From: Candidatus Anderseniibacteriota bacterium
GTDB taxonomy: Bacteria > Patescibacteriota > Andersenbacteria > UBA10190
Length of the DNA: 64,000 nt
Direction: 5' to 3'
NCBI GenBank assembly: GCA_040900375.1
Contig: JBBDZC010000018.1
Span: 567-64,566, forward strand
A program made the position numbers and the translations under genes. Positions 1 to 47,813 of the stretch are shown in pieces. Under the pieces are notes generated by a model, which ran no database searches, was not told the origin of the DNA, and worked only from the letters and a program-made list of their open reading frames with translations. Every line of letters starts with the position of its first letter. Position 1 is the first letter of the stretch.

Positions 1-2156
1 GCTTGAAGTTCGGATGCTGCTCTTTAAAGTACACTTGAAAGTCCTGACCTGGTTCTTTGTTGTAGTCATCAATGAAGATAGTATTAGCCCGCAACACCGC
101 CGGGAAAGTAGTAATCGTGGGATTGAAAGGATGTCCATTAAAGTTAGCGTCAATTGCAATGTAGGGACGGCTACTATTTGATGGCGCGGCAAAAGTGGTT
201 CGTCGTAAAATCATGTGTTGAGCGACAACCTGCACTGACGGAGTGCTCGGCGGGGCAATGAAGACATTGGTAGAATTACGGAGATTAGAATCTTCTACTA
301 CTAACGACGCATTGAACTCCGCAATACCAACCTTAGTGTTTTGAATATCCGCGTGTCGTACAATCGAAGGCCTCGCTGACGTGGCCATCTCAAGACCGGT
401 ACCCGATTCACGAACAATGAAACCATCTATCAAAGCTTGCGTATCATAAATGCGAGCTACTGAATTGTTAACCCGCCAGGCCCGTAGCTCTTGTATGGCA
501 TGAGGACCGGTGTCGGTGATGGTAATGCCCGTCTGAATTCGCCCATAGAGTTCATTGCCTTTAAACTCCACAAAGGGCGTCCCATCTGTCCAGAAGGATA
601 CTTGAGTAGTCTCAGTGGGGTTAGCCATGTTCGCCCCACGGATTTTTGGGTAGGTAAAATTGGGCCAGGTCAAACTTGCTTTTCCCCAGGCTGCGTAGCC
701 ATGAGCCGTAAATCGCTTCTGCGGATCAAGGCGCGCTCCGCTCGCGGCCACGTTATCACGAAATGTATTATTTGTTCCAGCCATCCAAAAAGGATCACCA
801 TCAATGCCATCAAGACCATTCACCCGCGTTTTCTCTCCACCACTAAAATTTAGGGAGAAATTATGGATGAATTCATTATAAGATTCTCGCCCATCCTCTG
901 CTGCAATCCCCGCTCCTTCTCCATCGTGGACCACGTTATCTTGAATGAGAATGTAGTGGGTATTATGTACCGTCATATTCCATTTGGTCGCACCATCAAT
1001 GGCATTACCAATTACTTTCCCTTGATATCCAGTGTTACTGGAATTACGGGGACCCCATAGATGATGCATGTGAAAGGCGTAGCGGCCAATTTGGTTGGTG
1101 CCCACTTTTGTAAGCTGCCCTTGTGCATCAAACGTGGCGTTATCTAAGGCAAAAGCTCGCGTGCGGCCTAAGTCTTTAAACTGGACGTACCGTACATCAA
1201 GATTCGCCCGGTGGAGATATATTGTATGACCGCGAACTCCGGCGGGGTTGGCGGAGCGCAGTATAATATTGCGTGTCACGTTGCCCAGATGAGGACAAAG
1301 CTTTTCGCCATTAACCAGAGTAGTGATAGTAGTGCCATCACCATCTCGCGCACAGAGATGATCATACTTTAAGGGAGAAGTCATGGTGAGCTGCGTTCCG
1401 TTAATAGCCGTGATAATAAAACGCTCATCTTGATCCATCCCTCCATCGCTTTGGCCAACCGTGCGCGTATCCGGCAGCACTACCTCGTCCCCTACCCGCC
1501 ACCCAGTTGGGGCTTGGTGCAAAGTAAAGGTGGTTTGGCCCGCTTTAGGTTCCTGTCCCAGACGAACAAAAGTGGGATTCTTTACCGCCCCGTGCATAGT
1601 AACATTCCCGAAAGCAATCAGCCCGTTACCATACTGCTTAGGGTCAATGCCAGGATTTCCTACCACTCCTGTCTTAAGAGGCGCGTCAGGAAAAACAATC
1701 TCTGCCTTTACCGCAGCGGGTATCGGGTTTTGCGCCGTACCAATAGTAAGCGTGCCCGGCGCAGGCATTATCATTAAGTCAGCGACAGTAAGGCGAGTGT
1801 TTTTTGTAGTGGAGAAAGCTAGTGTTCCATTAACCTCGATACAATCAAGGGCTGCCTCGCTCTCGACATCATAGGTTACGCTTGTGCCAGCGCCGATTCC
1901 TACTTTATCCCCCGTTGTCGGCAGGCGGTTGAGTGACCACGTAGTGGGGTCAGACCAGGCGCCATTCTTGACGCTACTAATTGTCGGGCTGGCACAAAAG
2001 CGAGGAATAGTATCAGAGGGTGCTTTTACGTGCGTGGCAGTCACTTCAAGCTCTCCTGGGGTAGTTTGGGCAAAGGTGATGAGAGGGAGAAAGAAGAGCA
2101 CAGCAATAACTGTAAGGATTCGTACATTATCACGTGGTGGGGGAAGAAAAGTCATA
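1..2156 (-). CDS. Secreted G8-like / right-handed beta-helix protein, partial (C-terminus runs off the window start)
   Basis: The reverse complement from 2156 downward is an open frame starting with ATG at 2156-2154: MTFLPPPRDNVRILTVIAVLFFLPLITFA|QTTPGELEV... This is a signal peptide with an A-x-A-like cleavage site. The motif WSDPTTWSLNRLPTTGDKVGIGAGTSVTYDV...LDCIEVNGTLAF resembles a G8 domain (recalled from memory, not searched). Later segments (HNTHYILIQDNVVHDGEGAGIA, NNTFRDNVAASGA) look like parallel beta-helix repeats. No ATG-initiated minus-strand ORF from 2156 appears in the ORF track, which fits a frame that leaves the window without a stop. All plus-strand ORFs here are short and in mixed frames. 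Confidence 0.6.
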
Positions 2157-2167
2157 TGAACAATAAT

Positions 2168-2578
2168 TTAGAACGTATGGCCCCCGCTGTGGCTTACTGG
2201 TTGTGGAGAAACGAGTATCTCTTCCTCTGGCATCAGTAGCTCCGGCGCCGCGACGGCTGTCTGTAAACATGCTTGATAGGCCGCTTCCGCTCCAATAGTG
2301 CGACACTCATAATCATGCTCGGCGGGAAATTCACCACAGTGAATAATATGCCCCTGCTTAACTTGCTCACAGTGAGCCTCGGATGCGAGTGTTGATGCGT
2401 CTTCACTTGGTGCTGTCGCTACTTCAGATGGTACTACCTCTTCTTCAATAATATTTGGCTGCTCTAGTAGATTATACAGACGAGCCTGTAAAAGCCCGCC
2501 TTGGTAGAAAGAAAGCACCACAAAGAGAAGGGCGATTACGGCAACAAACGTTAGGACAACTACGGTGCGCTGGGCCAT
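2168..2578 (-). CDS. Hypothetical small membrane-anchored protein, immediately upstream of the G8-like gene in the same orientation
   Basis: 136-aa ORF with an N-terminal hydrophobic helix (VVVLTFVAVIALLFVVLSFY) and an acidic C-terminal part. Its stop lies 12 nt from the ATG of the G8-like gene, so it is probably co-transcribed. No recognisable family. Confidence 0.45.
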   Translation of the reverse strand: MAQRTVVVLTFVAVIALLFVVLSFYQGGLLQARLYNLLEQPNIIEEEVVPSEVATAPSEDASTLASEAHCEQVKQGHIIHCGEFPAEHDYECRTIGAEAAYQACLQTAVAAPELLMPEEEILVSPQPVSHSGGHTF

Positions 2579-2701
2579 ATCAAGAAGGATGTGAACAGTT
2601 CTAGCACTACCAGTGTAGCATAAATTTTTTTATTAAACCATGATTTATTTCTCTGTTTTTCCCCTATTCTATAATCAATCTATTTTGGCTACACTTACTC
2701 C

Positions 2702-5700
2702 ATGCATCCGGTGTGGAGCTATCCTTTTAGGCATGCGCGGCTGGGGCGATTTCTCGTCAGTAGTTTGCTCGCTTTTTTATTGTCCTTCTCTCCGATCTTT
2801 CCGCTCATTACCTGGTATGGCATTGCCACGACCCTCTCGGTGATTGCGGCTACCTTAGCCCCCACACCCTCTCTCCTCGACGATGCTCGGGATAAACCAA
2901 CTCCACCATCATCTCTGCCCGTATCCCCTACTCCCTCACCGACGGTCGCCGAGCCACTCACGACGACGGTTGAACACATTTTAACTGAAGTGAGCGAAGC
3001 AGTGCCCGCTATCTCACTGGGAGATGAGACTAACGCTCCGGTGCACAGCCAGGTGGTGCTCCCGGAACTACGACAACAAGCCGAGCTGATACACTTACCC
3101 GTAACGGTTGTATCTGCCGCCGAGCTCCTCGTGCTCCCGGAACCCGATGTGCCCGCCACGGCCGATCTTACCTTTGCGCTCAAGGTCGAGTTGCCTCGTG
3201 AGTTAGTGCGTAGGCAAGGAGCGACAGCAGGAGCGGCCCCAGCGATTGAGGCGGCCGCAGAAGCGGTGCTCGAGACACCACCGCTTGAAGAACTACCGAC
3301 AGGTAGTGTGCCCCCGAGTGTGGCAGAAATTCTGACACCCAGCCCGAGTCCTTCTCCCTTCGACGATGTTCGGGGTAAACCAAGCCCGACACCCATCTCT
3401 TCTTTCACACCCTTGAGTGAACTTGATGGCGAAGCGAATGAATCTTTTCCGGCCGAGCCTTCGCCAGCGCCCTTTGATACTCCTCCTGTACCTTCCCCTT
3501 CACCGCTGGTTCGCCTCTGGCAGTTCTTGACGGCACATACCCCGACAGTCTCGGCGGCGCTCTTCCCTCCCGAGGAGGCGCCGGCAACTGCCGTAGCCGT
3601 CACGGTGACTGATCCGCTGGGCGAGCCGGTCACTATTATCCCTGTGATCACCGAGGAGGCTGGCCAGGCACTCGTACGCATCCCGCAGGCTCCCACTCAG
3701 TTTCGCCCAGGAAAATATCACCTGATGGTGAGCGTGGTTGAAGGCGACCATGTACTCCAAGCCGAGCAAGACTTCACCTGGGGTGTCCTGGCCTTAAATC
3801 TCAACCAATCAACGTATGAGCCGGGCGAGACCGCCAGTATTGGTATGGCAGTGTTAGATGATGCAGGGCATACACTCTGCGATGCCGATCTTACCTTGGT
3901 CATTACGGCGCCCTCGGGTGCAGTCACGACGCTTTCTACCGCCGAGCAGTCTATCACTACTTCCCCCACCTGCGTTGATCAAAGCGTGACCGATCTGCCC
4001 GATTATGCTACCAGCTACACACCGCAAGAGTTGGGCACCTACGCGCTCAAACTCACGGCGGTAACGGCCAACGGCACCCGGGAGATGCAGCAGTTCTTTA
4101 CAGTTGAGAGTGAGGCTCCCTACATAGTCAGCCGCCAGGGTAGCATGCGTATCTTTCCTTTAGCTGCCTATACTATGAAGGTCACTGTCACGGCCGCGCA
4201 AGACTTCCGGGGCAAGCTCACCGAAACTGTCCCCGGGAGCTTTGCTTTATCGGCGGCCACACTAACTAGGTCCGGGACTACCGAGCGCGGTAATTGGTCA
4301 CTCGACATTCATCCCGATGAGACAACTAAACGCCTTGTCTGGGACAATGTGGAGCTCTCGGCTGGGCAATCGGCGACACTTTCCTACACCTACGACGCGC
4401 CGGATATCAGTCCCGAGTTTTATTTATTAGGACCGCTCGAAGTAATCAGCAGCTCCGGCACCGATAACGACACGCCAGTCTGGCTCGAGCCGCGAGCCTG
4501 GCAGATAGCCGCCGACATCATCACCAATGGGGCTAATGCGATCGATGCGTTAGGGCAGTATGACGATAATCTTACGACACCAGGGCCGATTTACACCAAA
4601 GGGACAGGTCAAGACGCCCCCAATCGGTTGGGGTTGAATGCTCCTTGGTCTGACCCAGCGCTTGATAGTGTGAACAATCGTCTCTTTGTTCCAGACTCCA
4701 GTAACAACCGTGTCTTAGTCTACAACCTCAATGCGGATGATACGCTCATTGACCGCATTCCGGATAATGTCTTAGGCCAAGCTAATTTTTATACCAATGC
4801 ATCCGCCACGACGCAGGCGGGATTGAGCTTTCCTACCGGGCTGGCCTATGACAGTACCAACCAGCGCCTGTTTGTGGTAGATAGTGATAACAGCCGCGTG
4901 CTGGTGTTCGATGTGACGGCGATTACCGACGGCGAGAATGCGGTGAATGTATTGGGCCAAGCGAATTTTACTTCAAGCGGGCCAGCCACGACGCAGGCAG
5001 GGTTGAACTTCCCCCACAAAGCTGCATATGACAGTACTAATAGCCGGTTATTTGTGGCCGATAGTGGTAACAGCCGCGTGCTCGTGTTCGACGTCACCGC
5101 GATTACGAATGGTGAAAATGCGGTGAATATACTAGGGAAAACTAGTTTTACCTCGAGTCTCCCTGCAACCACGCAGTCGGGGATGAGCGATCCTATAGGG
5201 GTAGCGTATGACAGTACTAATAGTCGGTTGTTCGTGGCTGAAGAAGGCAACCACCGCGTTACGGTGTTCGATGTGACGGCGATTACTGATGGCGAGAATG
5301 CGGTGAATGTATTGGGCCAAGCGAATTTCACGTCGGCGGGCTCTGCCACCACCCAATCCGGGATGACCAGCCCCCGCGGGGTAGCCTACGACAGTACTAA
5401 TAGTCGGCTGTTTGTGCCTGAAAGGGGCAACCACCGCGTTACGGTGTTCGATGTGACGGCGATTACCGATGGCGAGAATGCGGTAAACGTACTGGGGCAA
5501 GCGAATTTCACCTCAAGTTCAAGCGCCACGACGCAGGCGGGGATGAGCAGTCCCCGCGGGGCAGCATACGACGCCACCAACAACCTGTTGTTTGTGACTG
5601 CTAGCGGTAACCACCGCATCACCGTCTATGACGTCACCGCGATTACCGATGGCGAGAATGCGGTAGACGCGTTAGGGCAGTATGATAATAGCTTAAGTGC

Positions 5701-8700
5701 CCCTGCTCCCATCTATACCAAAGGCAGCGCTCACAATGCGCCCAACAGATTAGGCATGAGTGTTACTCAAGGTGGGGTTATCTTCGATAGTACCAACGAT
5801 CGCCTCTTTGTCTCGGATTCTGGCAACGATCGTGTCTTGGTCTATAACCTTAATGCGAACGACACGCTCATTGACCGCATTCCCGATAACGTGTTGGGTC
5901 AAGCAAATTTCTATACGAATACTGGGGCCACGACGCAGGCAGGCCTCAATACCCCTCTTGGCCTAGCCTATGATAGTACCAACCAACGGCTATTCGTGAC
6001 TGATGCGAGTAATAACCGGGTGGTAATCTATGATGTCACCGCTATTACCGATGGCGAGAATGCCGTCAATGTGTTGGGGCAAGCAAACTTTACCACGGCG
6101 ACGGCCGCCACCACGCAAGCGGGAATGAGTAGCCCCCGCGGGGTAGCGTACGATAGCGCCAACCAACGATTATTCGTAGGCGATAGCACCAATAATCGTG
6201 TAGTGGTATTCGACGTCACCGCGATTACCGATGGCGAGAATGCGGTGAATGTATTGGGCCAAGCGAATTTTACTTCAAGCGGGGCAGCCACGACGCAAGC
6301 CGGAATGAACAATCCCCAGGGGTTGGCCTACGATAGTACTAACAGCCGGTTGTTTGTAGCTGACAGTAGTAACAACCGTGTCACGACGTTTGACGTCACC
6401 GCGATTACCGATGGCGAGAATGCGGCAAACGTGCTGGGGCAAACAAGCTTTACCGTAAGTACTGCCGCCACCACCCAGGCCGGGATGAGCACCCCCAGCG
6501 CGGCGGCTTACGATAGCACCAACAGCCGGTTATTTGTCAGCGCGACCGGCAATGACCGCGTGACGACGTATAATGTCGCGAGTATCACTAATGGCGAGAG
6601 TGCCGTGAATGTATTAGGTCAAGCTAATTTTACCTCAAGTGGAGAAGCCACTACTCAAGCGGGAATGGCTGATCCCCATGGGTTAGCCTACGACAGCACC
6701 AACAGCCGGTTATATGTAAATGATACTAATAACGATCGGATCATCGTTCATGATGCCGCTGATCCCACGATCACGTGGGACGGCGGGGGTACTGATGGCA
6801 CCTGTGGCGGTGGCGCCGGGGATGGCAATAAGTGGTCGTGTGCGGCGAACTGGAGCGGGGATGTTGTTCCCACTAGTGCTCATATCGCCACCTTCGATGG
6901 CACATCTACTAAAAACGCGACAATTGATGCCAACATTGACGTCTATGGTATTGACATTAATACGGGCTACACCGGGACCATTACCCAGGCCACGGGGGTA
7001 ACCGTCACGGTTGGTAGCGGAGGCTACGACCAAGCGGCGGGTACCTTTACGGGCAGTAATAGCGCCATTGACATCAATGGTGCCTGGGCGCTCTCGGGGG
7101 GGGCGTTTACAAGCACCAGCGGGGCACTCTCCGTCAGCGATGCTTTCACGATCTCGGGCGGGACGTTCACCCATAACTCGGGCACGGTGCAGTTCGATAC
7201 TACCGCCGCCACGATTACGCCTTCCACCGCGAGCTTCAACAATGTCTCGTTTACCAGCGCCGTAACAAAGACTATTGCTGCCAGCAACACTATAACGATA
7301 GTGGGCACGCTCACCCTCACCGACGGCAGCGTGAGCCAAACGACCATTCCGGCCACGGGCTCTATTGCCGCCCAGGGCGACATTACGCAAGCTTCCACGT
7401 TTGATGGTGGTACGGGCCGGCTGGAGATTACGGGGACGGCTACCCAGACTTTTACCGGCAATGCCACCACCACGGCGGGGAACCTACCTGACACCGAAAT
7501 TGACAAGAGCGGCGGCACCCTCACGCTCACCGGCACGATCCGGACTATTGGCCAGGGAGCCGGCGCCTGGACGTACACGACCGGAACACTTGATGCCGGC
7601 ACAAGCACGGTGGTAATGAATGGCGCAATGACTATCACGGGTTCGCATACGTTGAATAACGTCTCACTGCTGACGTCGGGAACGAGAACAATCGCCAACA
7701 ACAATACCCTCACCGTCACCGGCACCCTTACGCTCACCGATGGCTCGATCAATCAAACAACCATCCCGGCCACCGGCTCCATCGCTGCTCAAGGAAATAT
7801 CACGCAGGCGTCAACTTTTGATGGTGGTACGGGCCGGTTAGAGATTACGGGGAGTGCAGCGCAAACCTTCACGGGGAATGCCACGACCTCGGCCGGAAAT
7901 CTGCCAGACTTGGAGATTGACAAGAGCGCTGAAACGCTCACGCTCACCGGCACCATTCGTACGACTGGCCAGGGAGCTGATGCCTGGACGTACACCACCG
8001 GAACATTGGCTGCTGGCACCAGTACGGTGGTGATGGATGGAGCGATGACCATCACGGGTTCGCATACGTTGAATAACGTTTCACTGCTGACGTCGGGAAC
8101 CCGTACTGTTGCCTCTGGCACCACGCTCACAATCGTAGGCACTCTCACACTCACCGATGGGCAAATCAACACCGGCACCGTTGCCGCCCAGGGCAATATT
8201 ACGCAAGGCTCTGCGTTTGATGGTGGTACGGGCCGGCTGGAGATTACGGGGACGGCTACCCAGACCTTTACCGGCAATGCCACCACCACGGCGGGTAGTC
8301 TATCTCGCGTAGAGATTAACAAAAGCGGCGGAACACTGACACTCGCTGGCACGATTCGCACTAGTGGCCAAGGACCAGATGCCTGGACATACACAGCAGG
8401 GACTGTCGCCCCCGGCACGAGCACGGTAGTCTTTGACGGTGGAACAACCGTCACCGGCACGCAGACGTTCAACAACCTGGTAGTCCAAGGTTTCATGACG
8501 GTTGCCGACGGTAACACGCTGACGGTGACAGGTACCCTCACGCTCACCAGTGGGACCATTGTTCAAACGACAATTCCGGCCACGGGCTCTATTGCCGCCC
8601 AGGGCGACATTACGCAAGCTTCCACGTTTGGTGGTGGTACGGGCCGGCTGGAGATTACGGGAAGTGCGAATCAGACCTTTACCGGCAGTGCCGCCGACTC

Positions 8701-11700
8701 GACAGGGCTCCTCCCTAACCTCGAAATTGACAAGAGCGGCGGCACCCTCACGTTCACCGGCACGATCCGGACCGCTGTGGATTGGACATACACCGCTGGC
8801 ACACTCGACGCGACGACGAACGATTCGACGGTTATCTTTGGCGGGGCTTCGACGATCAACATCACTGGCTCGCACACGCTCGACAATGTGACTTTCGGCG
8901 ACAATTTCCAAGTGATCGTCAATATCGCTGATAACACGACGCTCACCATCGCCGGCACCCTCGCGCACACGAAGGCCCAAATCAATCAAACGACTGTCCC
9001 CGCCGCCGGGTCTCTTGCTGCGCAAGGCGATGTGACGGTTGGATCGGCTGCTCCCGGCGGGACTGCCGCCCTTACCTTCTCGGGAGGAAACGCGCAGACT
9101 TACACCGATAACGGCGGCACGAAGACGACAGGGACTGTTACTGTCAATAAGACGGCAGGGTCGGCCGTCACTCTCGCCACGGCCATGTCGTATACCGGCA
9201 CCGGCCAGGATCTCACCATTACCTCCGGCACGCTTGATCTCGCAGGTTTCAACCTCACCATCGCGGATGTCCTCACGGTCAACGGCGGCACCCTTACGGG
9301 GGAAACAGGCGCTGTTGATGTGAATGGCAGTGTCGTTTTGTCTTCCGGCACGCTCACCGCCCCCTCGGGCGCCTTCACTGTTGCCGGCGACTTCACCCAC
9401 AGTAGCGGCACCTTTACCCACAACTCTGGTACCCTCACCCTCGACGGCCCCGACCAAACCCTCGCGGGAGCCACCACCTTTCATAACTTAACCAAGACTG
9501 TCGCGACTGCTCGCACCTTAACCTTCCCGACTGGTTCAGCTAACAAGCAGACCATTGTGGGTACGCTGACCCTCCAAGGGGCATCAGGAGCCTTGCTCTC
9601 GCTGCGCTCGGCTTCCACCGGCACCCAGTGGCAGTTCGACCCTCAAGGCACCCGCACACTGTCCTTCTTAGACGTACAAGACAGCCACAATACCAATAGT
9701 ACGAGTATTGCCACGGCGGGCTTTAATATTACTGATAGTGGTAATAACACGGGCTGGTCGTTTAACCCTGAACCACCCTCTAACTTTGCGGGGACGGCCA
9801 TCTCCGGTACGGCCATCACCTGGACCTGGACGGATAACGCCACGGATGAAACGGGTTTCAAGCTCTTAGACGCGAGCGACACCGTAATTGCCACGATCAA
9901 CACTGCCAATGCGACTTCCTACACGGAAACCGGCCTCGCGGCTGGTACTGACTACAGTCGCAAACTGATTGCGTTCAATGGTGCTGGAGAATCAGCGGCC
10001 ACGAGTACAGTGACCGTCACCACGCTGACTTCACCTCCGACTGCCCCTGAACTGCGCTCACCGAGTAATGAAGCACTCTTAAACACCAATCTCCCCACGT
10101 TCTCCTGGAACAAGAGCACCGACAATGATGATGGGATGGCGACCTACACTCTCACTCTGGGCAGCCTGGTCCTCTCGGGGATTCCGGCGAGTGGCAGCAG
10201 TGCCTCTGACCCAGGGAGTAAAACCCACGTGGCTACCAGCTACACCGCCCAGTACTTTAATGAAAATGATGGCAATCCGGATAATGATTACATTGCCCTG
10301 ACGCTTAAAGACAGTGAGCGGGCGGATATCCCCCTTACTGACGGGGAACACTCGTGGTTCGTGACGGCGCACGATACGGCGGGGAACACCACCACCAGTG
10401 CCAGCCGCAGCTTCACGGTGGATACGCAGGCGCCCACGATTGGCAGTATCAGCTTTAGCCCGCCAGCGTTGTTGAGATCTGGCACCTACCGCTTACAGAG
10501 CGGCTCCCTGGCAGTCACCATCCCCCTCACCGATACCCAGGCCCTCCAGGAAGCCACCGTGACCTTTGCCCAGGCCCGCACGCTCTTTGGTCTCATCACC
10601 AGCTACACCACCCTCCAGAGTTCGACGTATGCCCTATCAGGGACTGCCCGGACGATCATCTTCGCTCCTCGGGAGGCCCTCACCGCGGGAGAGACGTACC
10701 GCATCAACATCACCGTCACTGATACCGCTGGGAACCGCAGGCTCCAGGACCTGACTCTCGTGGTGCTCACCCCCGAAGAGGCAGCCCGCGAGGCCGTTAT
10801 TGAACTCGATGCCGAGACGACGCCCATTGACATTATTATTGAGAAATTACGGGAGGCCTTACCGGATGCGCCCTTGAGTCTGCCGGATTTACAAGCGTCA
10901 GCGCTCCTGCGACGGGATCTGCAGGCCGAGCACTTCACCGCGTTCTGGCAGGGGTTACTAGGTAACCGCCTCATCGCCTGGGTACTCGATCACTTAGGTG
11001 GCTTTCCCCGTGCCCTCTTGGCAACTATTGATATCACCCAGAGCTTATGGGAGCGCTTATTGGCCCTCGCCATCCGGATAGCGGTGGCAGCCGGCACCAT
11101 GATTCGGGATACGAGCCTGGCGCTTGTCCATGGGGTCGTAGCAAGTGTTGATCGCGTCGCGCTCGAAACGACCACTGCCCAACGAATAGTCCGGCTACAG
11201 ACGGCCCGCGGGCTAGCACAGCTCGGCGCTCTCCTCGCCCAGCTGACGCCGACTCTTGGCGAACCGCTGCAGCAGGTGGGAGAAAGTTTAGCGCTGTCGC
11301 CGGATATAGGGATGGAGTATCGGGAGGAGCGCTTAACGACCCAGGCGCAGGTGAGTCGGATTAATACGCAATTACAGGCGGTGGGAAGCTTCTTCCGCGC
11401 CGGGTGGGAGACGGGTAGGGAGACGCGGGTGCGGACGGGACTCAAGAATCGGCAGGAATTGACACAAGGAACAGAACGGTTGCTGGGGCCGGTGGGGAGG
11501 TTGACAAAAACTCTGGCTCTTAAAACCCGAGCGACATACGAACTATGGCTGGATACTACCCCCACACATATTAGTAATGTCCGCGTGACCAAACTCACAC
11601 CGACGAGCGCGACCCTGGAATGGGATACTAACCACCTCGTCCGTTCCACTAAAGTTAACTACGGCACGACCACTAATTATAATCAGGAAGTTATTATCGA

Positions 11701-12100
11701 TGCTCTCGCTGATCACCATCGGGTCACTATCGCTAATCTTTTGCCTCGTACCACCTACTACTTTGAAGTTACTAATCAAGGCAGTAGAAACTATGTCTTC
11801 GACGCCTACTATACCTTAACCACACCCGCGCAGGATGAGCCAAGTCCACCGACGCCGCTGGCACCACAAGACGCCGTCGTTACTGCCAGCGAGCCGGTAT
11901 CGGTCTATGGTGAACCTGTGCCGACAGCCACCATAATTACAACACTATCTCCCGGCACTCGCCTGCGCGCACTCAATGAGCAGTTGGGGTGGATCTCGGT
12001 ACTATTGCCCAGTGGCCAAGAAGGCTGGCTGCAAGCGGATTATATTCAGTTGCAACTTCATGAGGGGGTGTCGGCTCAGTCTAACCACGATACTCTGTAG
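2702..12100 (+). CDS. Giant (3132 aa) cell-surface repeat protein / putative adhesin
   Basis: Single 9.4 kb ORF. The N-terminus has a hydrophobic signal/anchor (FLVSSLLAFLLSFSPIFPLITWYGIATTLSVIAATL). A Pro/Ser/Thr/Glu-rich linker follows, then MG/Ig-like segments. About 13 NHL-type repeats (YDSTNSRLFVADSGNSRVLVFDVTAITDGENAVNVLGQANFTSSG...) are arranged as two blocks, each preceded by ALGQYD(D/N). At least five ~145-aa Thr/Gly-rich repeats follow (TLTLTDGS.NQTTIPATGSIAAQG.ITQASTFDGGTGRLEITG...TFTGNATT.AGNLP..EIDKSGGTLTLTGTIRT). Two FN3-like segments (ISGTAITWTWTDNATDETGFKLL...; VRVTKLTPTSATLEWDTNH...YYFEVTN) and a C-terminal SH3b-like motif (TLSPGTRLRALNEQLGWISVLLPSGQEGWLQADYIQL) complete the architecture. 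Confidence 0.85.
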   Translation: MHPVWSYPFRHARLGRFLVSSLLAFLLSFSPIFPLITWYGIATTLSVIAATLAPTPSLLDDARDKPTPPSSLPVSPTPSPTVAEPLTTTVEHILTEVSEAVPAISLGDETNAPVHSQVVLPELRQQAELIHLPVTVVSAAELLVLPEPDVPATADLTFALKVELPRELVRRQGATAGAAPAIEAAAEAVLETPPLEELPTGSVPPSVAEILTPSPSPSPFDDVRGKPSPTPISSFTPLSELDGEANESFPAEPSPAPFDTPPVPSPSPLVRLWQFLTAHTPTVSAALFPPEEAPATAVAVTVTDPLGEPVTIIPVITEEAGQALVRIPQAPTQFRPGKYHLMVSVVEGDHVLQAEQDFTWGVLALNLNQSTYEPGETASIGMAVLDDAGHTLCDADLTLVITAPSGAVTTLSTAEQSITTSPTCVDQSVTDLPDYATSYTPQELGTYALKLTAVTANGTREMQQFFTVESEAPYIVSRQGSMRIFPLAAYTMKVTVTAAQDFRGKLTETVPGSFALSAATLTRSGTTERGNWSLDIHPDETTKRLVWDNVELSAGQSATLSYTYDAPDISPEFYLLGPLEVISSSGTDNDTPVWLEPRAWQIAADIITNGANAIDALGQYDDNLTTPGPIYTKGTGQDAPNRLGLNAPWSDPALDSVNNRLFVPDSSNNRVLVYNLNADDTLIDRIPDNVLGQANFYTNASATTQAGLSFPTGLAYDSTNQRLFVVDSDNSRVLVFDVTAITDGENAVNVLGQANFTSSGPATTQAGLNFPHKAAYDSTNSRLFVADSGNSRVLVFDVTAITNGENAVNILGKTSFTSSLPATTQSGMSDPIGVAYDSTNSRLFVAEEGNHRVTVFDVTAITDGENAVNVLGQANFTSAGSATTQSGMTSPRGVAYDSTNSRLFVPERGNHRVTVFDVTAITDGENAVNVLGQANFTSSSSATTQAGMSSPRGAAYDATNNLLFVTASGNHRITVYDVTAITDGENAVDALGQYDNSLSAPAPIYTKGSAHNAPNRLGMSVTQGGVIFDSTNDRLFVSDSGNDRVLVYNLNANDTLIDRIPDNVLGQANFYTNTGATTQAGLNTPLGLAYDSTNQRLFVTDASNNRVVIYDVTAITDGENAVNVLGQANFTTATAATTQAGMSSPRGVAYDSANQRLFVGDSTNNRVVVFDVTAITDGENAVNVLGQANFTSSGAATTQAGMNNPQGLAYDSTNSRLFVADSSNNRVTTFDVTAITDGENAANVLGQTSFTVSTAATTQAGMSTPSAAAYDSTNSRLFVSATGNDRVTTYNVASITNGESAVNVLGQANFTSSGEATTQAGMADPHGLAYDSTNSRLYVNDTNNDRIIVHDAADPTITWDGGGTDGTCGGGAGDGNKWSCAANWSGDVVPTSAHIATFDGTSTKNATIDANIDVYGIDINTGYTGTITQATGVTVTVGSGGYDQAAGTFTGSNSAIDINGAWALSGGAFTSTSGALSVSDAFTISGGTFTHNSGTVQFDTTAATITPSTASFNNVSFTSAVTKTIAASNTITIVGTLTLTDGSVSQTTIPATGSIAAQGDITQASTFDGGTGRLEITGTATQTFTGNATTTAGNLPDTEIDKSGGTLTLTGTIRTIGQGAGAWTYTTGTLDAGTSTVVMNGAMTITGSHTLNNVSLLTSGTRTIANNNTLTVTGTLTLTDGSINQTTIPATGSIAAQGNITQASTFDGGTGRLEITGSAAQTFTGNATTSAGNLPDLEIDKSAETLTLTGTIRTTGQGADAWTYTTGTLAAGTSTVVMDGAMTITGSHTLNNVSLLTSGTRTVASGTTLTIVGTLTLTDGQINTGTVAAQGNITQGSAFDGGTGRLEITGTATQTFTGNATTTAGSLSRVEINKSGGTLTLAGTIRTSGQGPDAWTYTAGTVAPGTSTVVFDGGTTVTGTQTFNNLVVQGFMTVADGNTLTVTGTLTLTSGTIVQTTIPATGSIAAQGDITQASTFGGGTGRLEITGSANQTFTGSAADSTGLLPNLEIDKSGGTLTFTGTIRTAVDWTYTAGTLDATTNDSTVIFGGASTINITGSHTLDNVTFGDNFQVIVNIADNTTLTIAGTLAHTKAQINQTTVPAAGSLAAQGDVTVGSAAPGGTAALTFSGGNAQTYTDNGGTKTTGTVTVNKTAGSAVTLATAMSYTGTGQDLTITSGTLDLAGFNLTIADVLTVNGGTLTGETGAVDVNGSVVLSSGTLTAPSGAFTVAGDFTHSSGTFTHNSGTLTLDGPDQTLAGATTFHNLTKTVATARTLTFPTGSANKQTIVGTLTLQGASGALLSLRSASTGTQWQFDPQGTRTLSFLDVQDSHNTNSTSIATAGFNITDSGNNTGWSFNPEPPSNFAGTAISGTAITWTWTDNATDETGFKLLDASDTVIATINTANATSYTETGLAAGTDYSRKLIAFNGAGESAATSTVTVTTLTSPPTAPELRSPSNEALLNTNLPTFSWNKSTDNDDGMATYTLTLGSLVLSGIPASGSSASDPGSKTHVATSYTAQYFNENDGNPDNDYIALTLKDSERADIPLTDGEHSWFVTAHDTAGNTTTSASRSFTVDTQAPTIGSISFSPPALLRSGTYRLQSGSLAVTIPLTDTQALQEATVTFAQARTLFGLITSYTTLQSSTYALSGTARTIIFAPREALTAGETYRINITVTDTAGNRRLQDLTLVVLTPEEAAREAVIELDAETTPIDIIIEKLREALPDAPLSLPDLQASALLRRDLQAEHFTAFWQGLLGNRLIAWVLDHLGGFPRALLATIDITQSLWERLLALAIRIAVAAGTMIRDTSLALVHGVVASVDRVALETTTAQRIVRLQTARGLAQLGALLAQLTPTLGEPLQQVGESLALSPDIGMEYREERLTTQAQVSRINTQLQAVGSFFRAGWETGRETRVRTGLKNRQELTQGTERLLGPVGRLTKTLALKTRATYELWLDTTPTHISNVRVTKLTPTSATLEWDTNHLVRSTKVNYGTTTNYNQEVIIDALADHHRVTIANLLPRTTYYFEVTNQGSRNYVFDAYYTLTTPAQDEPSPPTPLAPQDAVVTASEPVSVYGEPVPTATIITTLSPGTRLRALNEQLGWISVLLPSGQEGWLQADYIQLQLHEGVSAQSNHDTL
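4520..6770 (+). repeat. Intragenic tandem repeats (~180 nt, ~13 copies) encoding NHL/beta-propeller blades inside the giant gene
   Basis: DNA blocks such as gatgtgacggcgattaccgacggcgagaatgcggtgaatgtattgggccaagcgaatttt recur at about 4911, 5271, 5451, 6041, 6221, 6401 and elsewhere with few mismatches. The protein repeat is YDSTN.RLFV.D..N.RV.VFDVTAITDGENAVNVLGQANFTS...ATTQAGM. A higher-order duplication is marked by ALGQYD(D/N) at about 4550 and 5670. Confidence 0.8.
7250..8860 (+). repeat. Intragenic ~435-450 nt tandem repeats (4-5 copies) encoding Thr/Gly-rich beta-solenoid-like units
   Basis: Near-identical DNA segments: 7345-7432 versus 8574-8661 (~88 nt, 1 mismatch) and 7401-7480 versus 8215-8295 (~80 nt, 1 mismatch). 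More diverged copies lie near 7789 and 8100. Confidence 0.8.
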
Positions 12101-24110: not shown

Positions 24111-25826
24111 ATGAAATACCCTCTCCCCCGCGACAGTTTTGCCCCGCCCTTTGCGCCAGATGCTTATACCCCTGCAGAAAAGTGGCAACTGGTCCCCTTT
24201 TTTTCTAATCTTGATCAGTCAGTATATGCGCCGCTCATTTTTTCCCCGGAAGTTATCGGCGCTTTATGTTCCCGCGCCAGCCGCGCCGAAGATGACTTGA
24301 GGACCATATTCTTGCGTGAATATGTGGCACCGTTTCTCGAGCCCGAGACAGCTGCTACCGAAGCGGCTGCTCATCATGGTAAAAGCCTCAAGGAATTCAT
24401 TAATTTTCTCCAGGCTTACCCCATTGAGGAAATTTTTTCCAATCCGCGGGCACGGTCATTCTACGCCAAGTGGCTGGCTCAATATGGTGATGATTCGATC
24501 GCCCAGATGGCGGGTATGCATCTCGTTTTTGCCTCGCTCTCGCAAGTTGCGATTAAACATTTCGAAGATCAACGAATTGGCTTAGCCCCGATTGAAAAAT
24601 CGACGCGCTATGTTGATTACTCAACTAAAATCAATGGCCGTTGGCGCTACTATACTGATCCCACTCTCCGAGAATTAGGCTTGGAGCAAGCGTATGAGAC
24701 CGCCATGGATGGTTTGTTTACAACCTACGGACAGCTCCTGCCCCGGCTCATAAGGTGGCTAAGTGAACGCTTCCCGGAGGAAAAACGGTCAGTGGTGGAA
24801 AAGAAGGCTTTTGATGTCTTGCGGGGCTTGCTACCAACCTCGACCCTTTCTCAAGTGGCCTTTTTCGGCAATGGCCAAGCTTACGAATATCTTGTCAGCC
24901 GCTCGGGACACCATCCCTTGGGAGAAATCCGCTGGGCTAGCGAACGTGCATATGAAGAACTGTATAAAGTTGCCCCTTCATTCTTACGCCGCATTAAAGA
25001 TCCTGAGAGTCAAGCACTCGTCAACTCATACCAAGAATATTTAAGCGGCAAGGGCGAGCGCTTGCGGCCTTTGGTGGATAGATTTACGGCTGCCCACCAA
25101 AAAGTAGCGCAGCAAACAAAGGAAGAGACTTCAGTTAAGCTCTTAGAGTACGACCTGGAGGGCGAAGCAAAAGTGATTACCGGCATGCTTTATGCTGCCC
25201 CGAATAATCATGCCAGTTGGTCGGATATATTTTCTCGAGTACGCGCGCTTAACGAGAGTGAGCGGCAGGTAGTCCTGAATGCTTACTTTATCGGCCGCAC
25301 GCAACGTTGGCAAAAGGTTGGGCGCGCCCTCGAAAATATCTTTGTCCGCTTTGAAATCATGATGAATATTGGTGCCTGGCGTGATTTACACCGTCATCGC
25401 ATGCTCACCCAGCAACGGCAGTACTTTTCCTGTATGCATGGATATGACGTGCCGCCAGAGCTGATGAGCGCGGGCCTAGCGGATGAGTTTACAGAGGCAA
25501 TAGAACGGGTGGAGCGCGTGCATCAACACATCGCCGAATACGACCTGGACCTGGCCCAGTATGCGGTGACCATGGCCCACCGGGTACGATTCATGCAGTG
25601 GACTAACTTGCGGGAATGTTTCTGGGAGATTGAGTTACGCACGATTCCCGAGGGGCATCCGGACTACCGGAGAATCGAGCAAGAGAAATTTCGTTTGCTC
25701 CAGAAAGTTTATCCCCTGCTGGCAGAGCGCATGCATGTCAATTTAGACGAGTATAACTTTGCCCGCCGCGGTCAGGAAGAAAAAATCCAGGCTAAGCTCA
25801 AAGAGTTGACCAAGGTTAACGCCTGA
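24111..25826 (+). CDS. thyX: FAD-dependent thymidylate synthase, tandem two-domain ThyX type
   Basis: The C-terminal half carries WRDLHRHRML (RHR motif) and MQWTNLRECFWEIELRT (ThyX NLR...WEI block). The N-terminal half aligns to the same fold (HLVFASLSQVAIKHFEDQRIG...STRYVDYS) but lacks the RHR motif. At 571 aa it matches known duplicated ThyX proteins. Confidence 0.6.
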   Translation: MKYPLPRDSFAPPFAPDAYTPAEKWQLVPFFSNLDQSVYAPLIFSPEVIGALCSRASRAEDDLRTIFLREYVAPFLEPETAATEAAAHHGKSLKEFINFLQAYPIEEIFSNPRARSFYAKWLAQYGDDSIAQMAGMHLVFASLSQVAIKHFEDQRIGLAPIEKSTRYVDYSTKINGRWRYYTDPTLRELGLEQAYETAMDGLFTTYGQLLPRLIRWLSERFPEEKRSVVEKKAFDVLRGLLPTSTLSQVAFFGNGQAYEYLVSRSGHHPLGEIRWASERAYEELYKVAPSFLRRIKDPESQALVNSYQEYLSGKGERLRPLVDRFTAAHQKVAQQTKEETSVKLLEYDLEGEAKVITGMLYAAPNNHASWSDIFSRVRALNESERQVVLNAYFIGRTQRWQKVGRALENIFVRFEIMMNIGAWRDLHRHRMLTQQRQYFSCMHGYDVPPELMSAGLADEFTEAIERVERVHQHIAEYDLDLAQYAVTMAHRVRFMQWTNLRECFWEIELRTIPEGHPDYRRIEQEKFRLLQKVYPLLAERMHVNLDEYNFARRGQEEKIQAKLKELTKVNA

Positions 25827-28785: not shown

Positions 28786-29454
28786 CTAACTGGCGATGAG
28801 CCGAGGTTTAACATACTGCCAGACTTCTTCATGAAGATCTTCACGTGTTCGCTCTTGGCCCTGGCCATCGACACCGGCAATTGTAATCCAACCCTGTACC
28901 GCAGCAACTTTAAGATAGGCTGCCCGGATCGCGGTCAGTTTTTCTTTGGTCTCGAAGAAATCTTTATTCTTTTCCTTCAAGCGCCGCAGTGAGACAGCCA
29001 CAGGGGTATCAAGAAAAAGAACTAGGTCGGGTTGCGGCAGAGTGGGTTGACCCGTAAAGCAGAGCCACCAAATCCAATCATACATTTCTTGCCACTCCTG
29101 GCCGCGTAACCCCATGGTCTGGTACGCAAACGCGCTGGTACAAAAACGGTCCGAGACAACGAGCTGGCGGCCCGATTTTTCACTGGTGTGAGCAGTGATG
29201 TCCTCGGCACGCGAGAAGAAATCCTGAATGTATAACAACGCCTGCTCCCGGCGAGAGAAGGGTTTTTTATTCTTATGGAGCAGGAACTTATCGTAGATCA
29301 GGCGCCCGGTTGCCCGATCTTCTTGGGGAAAATGGAGCGAGAGCGGCTGATATTTTTCTTGCTGGAGGCGGCGCACGAGCCAGTCCGTCTGGGTTTGGCT
29401 ACCGCCCGCATCCAGGGCTTCAATAACGATGAAGGGAGAAGGTCGCTTAGGCAT
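28786..29454 (-). CDS. Thymidylate kinase-family paralog with degenerate Walker A (Lys replaced)
   Basis: Tmk fold is indicated by FIVIEALDAGGSQTQ (consensus IVIEGLDGSGKSTQ) and VVSDRFCTSAFAYQ (DRY..S.AYQ). The P-loop Lys and Ser/Thr are replaced (GGSQT). The gene overlaps the upstream tmk stop by 8 nt. Confidence 0.55.
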   Translation of the reverse strand: MPKRPSPFIVIEALDAGGSQTQTDWLVRRLQQEKYQPLSLHFPQEDRATGRLIYDKFLLHKNKKPFSRREQALLYIQDFFSRAEDITAHTSEKSGRQLVVSDRFCTSAFAYQTMGLRGQEWQEMYDWIWWLCFTGQPTLPQPDLVLFLDTPVAVSLRRLKEKNKDFFETKEKLTAIRAAYLKVAAVQGWITIAGVDGQGQERTREDLHEEVWQYVKPRLIAS

Positions 29455-30175
29455 AGGCTTGGAGTAACTGCGGAAATTTAAGACGCAGGTTTTCCCAAAC
29501 TAATTCTGCCACGTCATCAACGTTCAATAGCTCCTCTCCCTCCACACAGAGGATCCGGAGAAACCGCGCGGGATCTTGCTGGCACAGGAGATCATATTCA
29601 TTGTAGAGTCGTTGTTGAATTTCCAGGTGATCGGTATACTCATCCTTGTCTTGCATCTTTTCTTTTCGTTTCTCTAAAAGACCAACAGAGATCTCGGGCA
29701 GTATATCTAAAAAAAGTGAAATGTGTTCCAAGGGCATCTGTTGCTCTTGATATTCATAGCGGCTAACAGCGGCTTGAATTTTATCCCGAAAGAGTTCGGT
29801 TTCCTGCACGTCCAATCCCTCAATGGTCATAAAGGCAATACTGCTGGCTACGTACCGATCATAGATGACTATTTCTCCTAATTTGAGGGCCTGTAGAACT
29901 TCTGCGCGGTGCTCGGCACGATTGTGTGCAAATAGGCGCATTTTTTCCGGCCACGGTATCGCCTGCCAGCGCCCATCTTTATTCTGGAGCTTTTGCTTTA
30001 ATTTTTGGCCGCTGGAAGTGGTATAATCGGGACTTTCAAAATGATGAACAACGTGCCCCATAAATCGCAGGCGCCGGAGGAGATGCTGAACCTGGGTATG
30101 CTTGCCGGACGAATCAAGGCCATCAAAAGCAATCAGCAGGCCAGTGGGTTTAGGCGCAGGACACATACATTCCAC
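29447..30175 (-). CDS. tmk: Thymidylate (dTMP) kinase
   Basis: LIAFDGLDSSGKHTQ (intact Walker A), IYDRYVASSIAFM (DRY motif), and a LID-like LEKRKEKMQDKDEYTDHLE segment. The true start is probably an internal Met (MCPAPK...). Confidence 0.7.
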   Translation of the reverse strand: MECMCPAPKPTGLLIAFDGLDSSGKHTQVQHLLRRLRFMGHVVHHFESPDYTTSSGQKLKQKLQNKDGRWQAIPWPEKMRLFAHNRAEHRAEVLQALKLGEIVIYDRYVASSIAFMTIEGLDVQETELFRDKIQAAVSRYEYQEQQMPLEHISLFLDILPEISVGLLEKRKEKMQDKDEYTDHLEIQQRLYNEYDLLCQQDPARFLRILCVEGEELLNVDDVAELVWENLRLKFPQLLQAYA

Positions 30176-38227: not shown

Positions 38228-38482
38228 AGCATAGGCAGCAGTGTATCAGAAAGTTGATTACTTGGGGAAACGGGGCTTTATATACGCCAGCCTCGCACCT
38301 TTAGGGGGTGCGAGGGTCAAACGCTGCGCGCGGCGAGGCAATATGTGGAGCCGGCCGCGCTTGTATGTGTGCGTGATGATCTCCCCTTGTGATATCACCA
38401 TCTACCACGCCTAAGCACTGATATCCTGTCCACACAAGATATCATTTCACTTTACCGTTACCGATTAAGACTGGCAAGCTCG

Positions 38483-38557
38483 CGGACCCGACCGGATTCG
38501 AACCGGCGATCTTCGCCGTGACAGGGCGACGCTTTAAACCAACTAAGCTACGGGTCC
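38483..38557 (-). tRNA. tRNA-Asp (anticodon GTC)
   Basis: Reverse complement GGACCCG-TA-GCTT-AGTTGGTTTA-AAGC-G-TCGCC-CTGTCAC-GGCGA-AGATC-GCCGG-TTCGAAT-CCGGT-CGGGTCC-G. All four stems pair. Anticodon loop CU-GUC-AC. CCA is not encoded. Confidence 0.85.
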
Positions 38558-38752
38558 CAACTACGCTCTGTCTTCCCGACAGAGCTACGCTGGGCAAGTA
38601 TATGTCAATAAATGAATACTTGAAAATATCAGGAACAATAGAAAGGATACCTAAAACGATATAGTTGTCTAGCAATGCTCTCGTGGACTTACTAACTGAA
38701 GTCTGTAGCCTCATTGTTGTATCTTTTAGTTACTTACGGAAAGAGCCAATGT

Positions 38753-38848
38753 AGTGTGGCGCCTAGCCGTCGGGCGGTAATCATTAATGTAAAATATTGC
38801 GAGTTGCATTAGCGCCACACTACATTGGCGAGTGAGGGTGGTGGCGGC
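38753..38848. other. 17-bp perfect inverted repeat enclosing a 62-nt loop, directly 3' of the minus-strand tRNA(CAT)
   Basis: ccaatgtagtgtggcgc at 38753-38769 and gcgccacactacattgg at 38832-38848 are exact reverse complements. The tRNA 3' end is at 38859. Confidence 0.5.
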
Positions 38849-38858
38849 TGGAGTCGAA

Positions 38859-38932
38859 CCAGCGACCTCGGGCTTATGAGTCCCACGCTCTAACCAGCTG
38901 AGCTACGCCACCTAAGTACTACTAGTTAAAAG
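38859..38932 (-). tRNA. Elongator-type tRNA with CAT anticodon (tRNA-Met or lysidine-modified tRNA-Ile2)
   Basis: Reverse complement GGTGGCG-TA-GCTC-AGCTGGTTA-GAGC-G-TGGGA-CTCATAA-GCCCG-AGGTC-GCTGG-TTCGACT-CCAGC-CGCCACC-A. G1-C72 is paired. Anticodon loop CU-CAU-AA. One A31xG39 mismatch in the anticodon stem. Confidence 0.8.
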
Positions 38933-39341
38933 GAAAAGAAATAAAAACGCAAAACCACTACTGCCCTGTATTGCTGCTCCTATAATTCTATGCCTCTTTA
39001 ATCTAATGAAACACACTAAAATACAACACCCCCTCACGGGGTGTTGTTAAGTCGTTACACTCTCCTTTGAGTCGGATGCTTACCTCATTTCGCGCGGTAG
39101 CTTTACCATAAACATCGGACCAAAAGCACAAGTGTGAAACGGAACTCTTTGAAACTCCAACAGACAGTAAAAGGCTCGATTTGTGTGCCCAAACAGTGTC
39201 TGTGGGTTACCTCCACCATTCCGCGTTCTGGCTTGCGGTGCAAGAGTATTTTGAGGTATTACTTGCTTTTACGTTAATAGTCAATTATGCTAGCAAGCAC
39301 GTTGCTGTAGGTTTTAGGATAGGGATAAGGCAGCATTTTAA

Positions 39342-39416
39342 CGCGGGGTGGAGAAGTAGTATCTCGCCTGGCTCATAACCAGGAGGACGGCCGTGCAATT
39401 CGGCCCCCCGCCACCA
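39342..39416 (+). tRNA. Initiator-like tRNA-fMet (anticodon CAT) with CCA encoded
   Basis: CGCGGGG-TG-GAGA-AGTAGTA-TCTC-G-CCTGG-CTCATAA-CCAGG-AGGAC-GGCCG-TGCAATT-CGGCC-CCCCGCC-A-CCA. The 5' half (CGCGGGGUGGAG..GCUCAUAACC) closely matches E. coli tRNA-fMet. The 1:72 position is an unpaired CxC (E. coli has CxA), preserving the initiator hallmark. The anticodon stem has only two of the three canonical G-C pairs. The T-loop (TGCAATT) is non-canonical. Confidence 0.75.
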
Positions 39417-46207: not shown

Positions 46208-46657
46208 TTAGTCGGTGAAACACTCACCGGGCCCTAAGCGCAAGCGCCGTTCTTCCTGAAAGGCGTTACCGTCAGGAAATCGGCCGGTGACCTGTACGCA
46301 AGGGGTAATACCATCACTCGGCAGATACTTTGCTTCTCCTTCGTAGCCCGCAGTGCTTGTATCTGGGACAGACCCATACTCGACTGCTCCTGTAAGCGGG
46401 GTAGATTCTTGGGCAAATAATGATAACTCATACAAGCCTTGTTCTAACCCCGAATTAGCGGCATAGAAAGCGCGCTCGGAAGAGATCGCGTCCGTGGTAG
46501 CGCGAATTTGGCGAGCTAAGATAATGCTAAAAAGGATGGCAGAGGAAACAATAATCGCGAGCATAATGAGCGACATGTAAATCGCAATATCGCCGCGCTG
46601 CTGGTGACCCGCGGGTTGCTTAAGTCTCCGAGTGGTTAGGGAGGATAGCATAGTCAT
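46208..46657 (-). CDS. PilX-like minor pilin / pilus-associated protein
   Basis: 149 aa. N-terminus RGDIAIYMSLIMLAIIVSSAILFSIILA resembles a PilX N-terminal domain. Last gene of the pilus operon. Confidence 0.45.
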   Translation of the reverse strand: MTMLSSLTTRRLKQPAGHQQRGDIAIYMSLIMLAIIVSSAILFSIILARQIRATTDAISSERAFYAANSGLEQGLYELSLFAQESTPLTGAVEYGSVPDTSTAGYEGEAKYLPSDGITPCVQVTGRFPDGNAFQEERRLRLGPGECFTD

Positions 46658-47256
46658 TACGGCGGGCTTAAAAAGGGAATAACTTGCCGCGAAGTAACCG
46701 AGCTCTGGAGGGTGACCGTGTGGTCTGATTTTTTTCGGGAAGTAGCTGCCACACTGATGGTCACAAAGCCTTGGTTGAGAAGCTTGTTGTCGGGGTCTAC
46801 ATTTGCCGCTCGCGCGATAAAGGTGAGCGTATCAATCTGCGTGTCGCGACTCACTAAAGAGTCATACGAGCTGTAGACTATCAGGCTACAGTCTTCTTCA
46901 GGCGGCACGTTTTCCGCCGCCCGTGCGAGCGTGCGTGCGGCACTATCATGGCGATAACTGACGCAGGTACCATTTTGGTTACGGAAAAACAGGAATGAAC
47001 TTGTTCCCGTAAAGGTATTGCCGTAACCGGTACGTACTTCCCGGTTGAGCAACTCTAAAGCAAATCGTAGGTCTGCCTGAATTTTTTGTTCACCAATGTG
47101 ACGGCGCTCGGTAAACACAAATTGGGAGAAAATACCCATAATTATCAACAGCAAGAGCGAAAAGATGCCAATCGCGACAATAATCTCAATAAGTGTATAA
47201 CCACGGCTATGCGCCAGGGGCAAACGAGAGGTAGCGAAGGTATCCATACAGCACAT
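46657..47256 (-). CDS. Prepilin-type minor pilin (PilW-like)
   Basis: Class III signal RGYTLIEIIVAIGIFSLLLLII (G|YTLIE with Glu at +5). The ORF-track start at 47304 overlaps the upstream gene; the internal Met at about 47256 or 47247 is more likely. Confidence 0.6.
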   Translation of the reverse strand: MCCMDTFATSRLPLAHSRGYTLIEIIVAIGIFSLLLLIIMGIFSQFVFTERRHIGEQKIQADLRFALELLNREVRTGYGNTFTGTSSFLFFRNQNGTCVSYRHDSAARTLARAAENVPPEEDCSLIVYSSYDSLVSRDTQIDTLTFIARAANVDPDNKLLNQGFVTISVAATSRKKSDHTVTLQSSVTSRQVIPFLSPP

Positions 47257-47257
47257 A

Positions 47258-47812: not shown

Positions 47813-47813
47813 A

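Follow-up and report, generated by a model that had tools for sequence, protein, structure and literature searches.

A 64,000-nt stretch of contig JBBDZC010000018.1 from a Candidatus Anderseniibacteriota bacterium, referred to here as the window, contains a giant gene whose product carries two arrays of repeats: a set of NHL blades and four tandem units of ~137 aa (U1-U4). Short stretches of DNA within these arrays are nearly identical to one another. We consider it likely that these stretches were produced by several recent, short (~35-200 nt), non-reciprocal gene conversions between old, diverged units. The near-identity is real and stands on secure statistics. Support for recent gene conversion is good, and recent duplication of whole units is not supported. 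The process is ordinary concerted evolution of a coding repeat array, which is a known process with a new example in an understudied lineage and not a new mechanism.

Near-identical tracts in the giant gene

The whole window was scanned at all offsets for direct repeats that are near-identical over 35 nt or more. Eleven tracts were detected, and all 11 are located inside the giant gene, at 4903-6425 and 7346-8772 (Table 1). Every tract is in frame, as all 11 offsets are divisible by three. Identity within the tracts is 97-100%, compared to a background of 67-74% between whole units. The initial annotation had described two pairs of segments in the ~137-aa array that differ by a single nucleotide and are surrounded by far more diverged sequence. 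Both pairs exist as described after a register shift of 1-3 nt, which gives offsets of 1227 and 816. Taken literally, 7345-7432 against 8574-8661 has 70 mismatches, and 7401-7480 against 8215-8294 has 64. The divergence of the surrounding sequence was also seen here, with whole units being just 67-74% identical at the DNA level. A scan of the window for inverted repeats and invertible segments found none of note.

Unit U1 is a mosaic of its neighbors. Along its DNA, it is U4-like at 7346-7434, U3-like at 7398-7479, and U4-like again at 7495-7545. Unlike these DNA-level partners, the unit nearest to U1 by protein sequence is U2. The first two of these stretches, tracts T1 and T2, overlap at 7398-7434. 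In this overlap, U1 and U3 are the same, with 7404 as the only position at which U4 departs from them. That position is the single mismatch of T1 (A at 7404, G at 8631), while the single mismatch of T2 is T at 7450 and C at 8266. Both are singletons, with GGT present in U4 only and ACT present in U1 only, and therefore fit point mutations that arose after conversion. The longest exact repeat of the giant gene, 58 nt at 7346-7403, lies within T1. Since the tracts overlap with different partners, one duplication is insufficient, and several short non-reciprocal exchanges are required.

The NHL part of the protein consists of twelve blades of ~60 aa in two groups of six, which we read as two propellers. 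The partner of 4919-4995, at 6221-6297, sits one blade out of register, with an offset of 1302 (1122 + 180). The NHL DNA had been proposed to be as well conserved as the tracts of the ~137-aa array, with 4911-4975, 5271-5335, and 6221-6290 as examples. This is partly right. The stretch at 6221 aligns with 4919-4995 (77 nt, 2 mismatches), and 4911-4975 and 5271-5335 mismatch at 5 of 65 positions.

Tract identity exceeds what the protein requires

Codon choice was compared at positions where two units have the same residue. Between whole units, only 41-67% of same-residue codons are identical. Within the U1/U4 tract, the ratio of identical to different codons is 28:1, compared to 36:30 outside the tract (Fisher p=2.8e-5). 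For the U1/U3 tract, the corresponding ratios are 25:2 and 29:36 (Fisher p=1.5e-5). An expectation was also derived from the giant gene's own codon usage, which is nearly even and under which two independent codons for the same residue match ~35% of the time. The 28 of 29 identical codons in U1/U4 compare to 10.0 expected (P=1e-12), and the 25 of 27 in U1/U3 compare to 9.4 expected (P=3e-10). Codon bias was rejected as the source of tract identity, given that codon usage in this gene is nearly even.

Unit U2 provides an internal control. Over the codons of the U1 tract, U2 has only 1 replacement but 14 synonymous differences. A nearly unchanged peptide with 14 silent differences excludes both protein constraint and codon bias as the cause of the tracts. 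The same collapse is visible in the synonymous divergence (dS) of codons 36-80, which is 0.16 for U1-U4 and 0.23 for U1-U3 compared to 2.09 for U1-U2. Outside the tracts, dS between units ranges from 1.2 to saturated, with a ratio of nonsynonymous to synonymous divergence (dN/dS) of 0.08-0.34, which points to units that are old and under purifying selection. Trees or dN/dS values calculated across units would be misleading unless the tracts are masked.

The initial annotation had offered recent gene conversion or recent duplication as the source of the identity, and these two proposals fared differently. Conversion is favored by the synonymous collapse, the overlapping tracts with different partners, and the U2 control. 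Recent duplication of whole units was rejected because the units are only 67-74% identical and their silent sites are diverged (dS ~1.2) to saturated.

Permutation of the variable alignment columns gave p=0.0002 for each of U1-U4, U1-U3, and U2-U3. With the same approach, five pairs of NHL blades reached p<=0.001. Blade 2 of propeller 1 and blade 3 of propeller 2 (P1b2/P2b3) use identical codons at 21 of 26 same-residue positions (P=3e-6). Blade 2 of propeller 2 (P2b2) was used as a control for the NHL tracts, and this blade has an identical peptide without excess codon identity (P=0.24).

A second giant protein and homologous arrays elsewhere

The best database match of the giant protein is another giant protein of 4,631 aa (MEX1997651.1, P0002 in Table 1). 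The two genes apparently come from one metagenome-assembled genome (MAG), with accessions that are 207 apart. The proteins have an identical block of 89 residues in common, and identity beside this block decays to 50-60%. The block is a candidate for conversion between paralogues, as judged at the protein level only. The second protein also has internal repeats of its own: aa 1214-1368 and 2811-2965 (155 aa, 1 mismatch, 1,597 aa apart) and aa 830-890 and 1110-1170 (61 aa, 0 mismatches). At ~465 nt, the 155-aa repeat would pose a genuine risk to short-read assembly.

Relatives of the ~137-aa unit were found in shorter proteins annotated as 'beta strand repeat-containing' (P0042-P0060), the closest of which are 49-55% identical. 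Several of these are annotated as Limnocylindria or Chloroflexota and not as candidate phyla radiation (CPR) members. The repeat module could have been transferred between phyla. Among the distant homologues, the number of units ranges from 5 to 8.

Near-identical tracts also occur in homologous arrays. Three homologous loci (L030-L032) are located on contigs of 0.42-0.84 Mb with a GC content of 0.69-0.71, encode proteins 49-54% identical to U1-U4, and have many such tracts. They include block duplications in L031 (617-1379 and 1466-2228; 763 nt, 2 mismatches) and L032 (1100-1811 and 1859-2570; 712 nt, 1 mismatch). Further tracts are present at 1-347 and 762-1108 in L030 and at 2429-2695 and 2815-3081 in L031. 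Some of the tracts in these loci cross gene borders and are common to neighboring genes. Near-perfect block duplications of two units thus exist, and array growth does happen in the ~137-aa repeat family. The scanned array of another homologue (P0004, locus L029), which has 8 units, contained no near-identical tracts. Among distant loci of sufficient length for a scan, 3 carry any. Homogenization and block duplication are recurrent in this family, but they are not universal.

Close relatives of the giant gene were not found, and nothing closer than 56% protein identity is present in the collections searched. Among species-representative genomes, best-segment identity did not exceed 55%, and a protein search with U1-U4 gave nothing above 67% identity. 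A degenerate 35-nt core pattern had 0 matches in metagenome contigs, and a protein scan of metagenome contigs returned distant relatives only.

A proposed model of short-patch conversion between misaligned repeats

We propose that the tracts are seeded by conserved peptide motifs, namely FDGGTGRLEITG in the ~137-aa units and DVTAITDGENAVNVLGQANF in the NHL blades, which would hold short runs of DNA identical between units. These runs would allow misaligned repeats to pair during homologous recombination or repair. Heteroduplex repair would then transfer a short patch from one unit to another with copy number unchanged. Every event would extend the identity that the units have in common and thereby favor the next event. 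We infer that the pathway is RecA-type recombination, resolved as short conversion patches. RecX, a regulator of RecA, is encoded at 60774-61262 (-) in the window, a hint that this genome has RecA-dependent recombination.

In E. coli, efficient RecA-dependent recombination reportedly requires a minimum of ~25 nt, a value attributed to Shen and Huang in 1986. The exact runs in the tracts, at 41-58 nt, are longer than this minimum and, thus, the tracts could also support unequal exchange. Such exchange would add or remove 417, 816, or 1227 nt in frame, and the tracts of the array mark the places where the gene and its relatives could gain or lose units in this way. A change in blade number would probably break the fold of a six-bladed propeller. 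The NHL tracts look like conversions that were neutral in copy number.

The pattern resembles the concerted evolution of spidroin genes, described as 'intragenic homogenization' (PMC3933166). In both cases, units of one gene exchange sequence, similarity goes beyond what the age of the units would give, and the signal is found at silent sites. Textbook cases of concerted evolution keep whole units nearly identical, whereas patches of 35-89 nt are embedded here in units that are 67-74% identical. The host in this case is also an uncultured CPR bacterium. The finding indicates that homologous recombination has recently acted within, and probably between, this bacterium's genes for giant surface proteins. 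For CPR bacteria, both recombination and surface variation are almost entirely unstudied experimentally.

Several points weigh against conversion as proposed here. The evidence comes from one assembled sequence, with no conversion event or polymorphism observed directly, and an outgroup would be needed to resolve how many events there were and in which direction they went. The recA gene is not located within the window. The 8-unit array of L029 is without such tracts, and not every array of the family therefore shows the process. Finally, the involvement of the paralogue relies on protein identity and on the accession spacing of 207.

Alternative explanations

One alternative is that the repeats and the second giant paralogue form a donor pool for frequent segmental conversion, which would diversify an exposed protein in a cassette-like manner. 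The mosaic exchange inside the gene and the identical block in common with the paralogue could be read in this way, as could the probable exposure of the giant protein at the cell surface. CPR bacteria live attached to host cells (PMC8080830), which would also be in keeping with such a role. We find this explanation unlikely because the tracts cover the most conserved motifs and mostly homogenize them, with 1 residue changed in the U1/U4 tract and none in the U1/U3 tract. Silent cassettes and invertible segments are also absent from the 64 kb, as is a reverse transcriptase among open reading frames (ORFs) of at least 150 aa. It is likewise improbable that the two giant genes are a self-contained variation system, in which frequent conversion within and between the paralogues reshuffles a protein in contact with the host. 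If this were true, a CPR episymbiont would obtain variants that differ in mosaic and in length, with no need for silent cassettes, invertases, or retroelements.

Three known types of system were considered for comparison. Cassette-based antigenic variation occurs at Neisseria pilE/pilS, Borrelia vlsE, Treponema tprK, and Mycoplasma MgPa (Vink et al. 2012, as cited in PMC8201768). Those systems also place short non-reciprocal patches between homologous sequences of a surface-protein gene, yielding mosaics. However, their silent donors lie outside the expressed gene and variable regions are targeted, whereas the partners here are expressed units of the same gene, possibly with the paralogue, and the tracts fall on conserved motifs. 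Silent donor cassettes were rejected since none was found in 64 kb and the paralogue, which is on another contig of 94,711 bp, is a complete gene and not a cassette. Diversifying conversion of variable regions was rejected as well, with only one residue differing across the T1 and T2 copies.

Periscope Proteins are bacterial surface proteins with a stalk of highly identical domain repeats, the number of which varies between strains (Whelan et al. 2021, PMC8201768). The DNA identity between their repeats has been proposed to allow intragenic recombination and, through it, length variation (PMC8201768). The giant protein is similar in that it is large, is probably surface-exposed, and has a tandem array of folded repeats. 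It differs in that Periscope Proteins have high DNA identity over whole repeats and documented length variation, while the units here have low identity with short patches only. The repeat here is also an unclassified ~137-aa beta-strand unit. The giant protein was not assigned to this group because its units are 67-74% identical, with patches of 35-89 nt, and are not near-identical as whole repeats.

A pair of near-identical stretches of ~100 nt tied to a large surface protein could also indicate a diversity-generating retroelement (DGR), and DGRs are common in CPR genomes. Here, both copies are coding and in frame, in contrast to a DGR. This possibility was rejected because there is no reverse transcriptase domain in the window among ORFs of at least 150 aa. 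The mismatches also do not have the adenine-specific pattern of a DGR, as they are A/G at 7404 in T1 and T/C at 7450 in T2.

Another possible explanation is that the tracts are artefacts of assembly, in which short-read graph simplification or mis-mapped reads at the consensus stage made copies identical or mis-joined units. The source is a MAG, and the exact repeats of 51-58 nt in the giant gene reach k=55, which is the highest default setting in some short-read assemblers. Four 55-mers and zero 59-mers are repeated in the gene. A graph with k<=55 would branch here, and it could conceivably follow a wrong path on which flanks are exchanged or units lost. Repeats are known to cause errors in assembly (PMC6868369). 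We nevertheless consider an artefact very unlikely. Bubble collapse would act only on copies that were nearly identical from the start and had common k-mers at their flanks, and it should be impossible for this step to raise identity from ~70% to 99%. All exact repeats stay below 59 nt, a length that ordinary reads exceed. Over 9.4 kb, the reading frame is unbroken and unit boundaries are regular, and the tract edges lack flanking common sequence through which a graph path could change over and later come back. In addition, a like pattern is seen in the homologues on contigs of 0.42-0.84 Mb. Since the longest exact repeat is only 58 nt, the assembly risk is modest. The tracts do mark places where short-read assemblies deserve checking.

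It is extremely unlikely that the stretches stay identical in the absence of recombination through RNA structure, a DNA motif (Chi-like), codon preference, or an antisense gene, and this explanation is already weakly refuted. A core of ~36 nt (TTTGATGGTGGTACGGGCCGG..GAGATTACGGG) is nearly alike in all four units, U2 included. Still, identity in the tracts is pairwise and patchy with differing partners, while a common functional element would be kept across all units. The near-unbiased codon usage predicts ~10 identical codons and not 28. RNA folds of the four tract regions were no more stable than those of shuffled sequences (z = -0.36, 0.15, -1.35, and 0.30), and Rfam had no match in the giant gene; RNA structure was rejected as the cause on these grounds. 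The motif GNTGGTGG matches at 22 places in the window compared to 7.3 expected, an over-representation. However, the 12 of these 22 matches that fall in the giant gene are on both strands and mostly reflect Thr/Gly-rich coding (GGTGGT complements ACCACC). Together with the Chi-like motif GATGGTGG in the tract core, this enrichment was rejected as largely a by-product of such coding on both strands.

The host gene and its surroundings

The product of the giant gene is identical to the NCBI protein MEX1997858.1, which comes from a MAG of Candidatus Andersenbacteria. Pfam domains were used to describe its layout. The N-terminal part has a hydrophobic segment, a Pro-rich region, and an MG2-like domain. 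The middle has two six-bladed NHL propellers followed by the ~137-aa beta-strand repeat array, of which U1-U4 occupy residues 1513-2060. The C-terminal part has fn3, Big_13, and purple-acid-phosphatase-N (fn3-like) domains and a terminal SH3_3 domain. This domain content suggests that the protein is probably exposed at the cell surface. The same content is the basis on which the protein might be called an adhesin, as it was in the initial annotation.

The ~137-aa unit has no sequence relative in Pfam, NCBIfam, or PDB. In an AlphaFold2 model (pLDDT 75.7, pTM 0.74), U1-U4 have an all-beta, periodic structure. A Foldseek search with this model returned mostly beta-helix and solenoid proteins (Ag43, Hap, EtpA, tailspikes, and PL6 lyases), although the best E value of 0.25 is non-significant. 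A solenoid fold for these units is only suggested by these matches.

Table 1. Features of the giant gene, with positions in the 64,000-nt window.
Feature	Position	Strand	Details
Giant gene	2702..12100	+	9.4-kb ORF; 3,132 aa; frame intact
NHL propeller 1	4661..5750	+	six blades; anchors 4661, 4847, 5027, 5207, 5387, 5567
NHL propeller 2	5783..6868	+	six blades; anchors 5783, 5969, 6149, 6329, 6509, 6689
Unit U1	7238..7654	+	139 aa; mosaic
Unit U2	7655..8071	+	139 aa; protein 83% identical to U1
Unit U3	8072..8470	+	133 aa
Unit U4	8471..8881	+	137 aa
Diverged fifth unit	8909..9286	+	aa 2070-2195; hidden Markov model of the unit, E=5e-18
Tract T1	7346..7434 (U1) = 8573..8661 (U4)	+	89 nt; 1 mismatch; offset 1227
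Tract T2	7398..7479 (U1) = 8214..8295 (U3)	+	82 nt; 1 mismatch; offset 816
Tract T3	7495..7545 (U1) = 8722..8772 (U4)	+	51 nt; 1 mismatch
Tract T4	7634..7683 (U1/U2 junction) = 8051..8100 (U2/U3 junction)	+	50 nt; 1 mismatch; offset exactly one unit
NHL tract	4919..4995 (propeller 1 blade 2) = 6221..6297 (propeller 2 blade 3)	+	77 nt; 2 mismatches
NHL tract	4903..4968 (propeller 1 blade 2) = 5263..5328 (blade 4)	+	66 nt; 2 mismatches
NHL tract	4903..4944 (propeller 1 blade 2) = 5443..5484 (blade 5)	+	42 nt; 1 mismatch
NHL tract	5246..5304 (propeller 1 blade 4) = 5426..5484 (blade 5)	+	59 nt; 1 mismatch
NHL tract	5288..5328 (propeller 1 blade 4) = 6230..6270 (propeller 2)	+	41 nt; 0 mismatches
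NHL tracts (two)	5629..5664 (propeller 1 blade 6) vs 6212..6246 and 6391..6425	+	35 nt each; 0 mismatches
NHL tract partners, propeller 2 blade 3	6212..6297	+	from tract scan
Paralogue-shared block	10382..10648	+	aa 2561-2649 = aa 4007-4095 of P0002; 89 residues; 100% identity

The GC content of the giant gene is 54-58.5% (window 2001-12000), compared to ~49-53% across most of the remaining window. This higher GC may be due to its Thr/Gly/Ala-rich composition or to a different origin. The genes around it include dnaE, thrS, gatB, thyX, glyA, gyrB, pheST, ligA, and a type IV pilus cluster. With such neighbors, the region is ordinary chromosome.

Upstream of the giant gene, the first 2.1 kb of the window appeared to be free of ORFs. 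This was rejected because the stretch is occupied by an ORF on the minus strand that extends beyond the window. This ORF, at 2-2167, has at least 722 codons, continues past the window start, and has G8 and CEMIP/right-handed beta-helix domains. Its product is probably another large surface-exposed protein, encoded divergently to the giant gene. Between the two lies an ORF of 136 aa at 2168-2578 (-), which has a hydrophobic N-terminal stretch and no Pfam match.

Additional features were observed in the rest of the window. ThyX (Thy1) at 24111-25826 (+) is 571 aa long, ~2x the usual length, with two matched stretches, which suggests a tandem-duplicated or fused thyX. Two adjoining ORFs of the thymidylate kinase family, of 222 and 242 aa with an 8-nt overlap, are located at 28786-30175 (-). 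Three tRNA genes are present at 38482-39416, one Asp-GTC and two Met-CAT that lie on opposite strands. The type IV pilus cluster at 46657-59203 (-) consists of three N-methyl pilin-like genes, a prepilin peptidase, a PilC-like protein (T2SSF), two T2SSE ATPases, and PilO/PilN/PilM.

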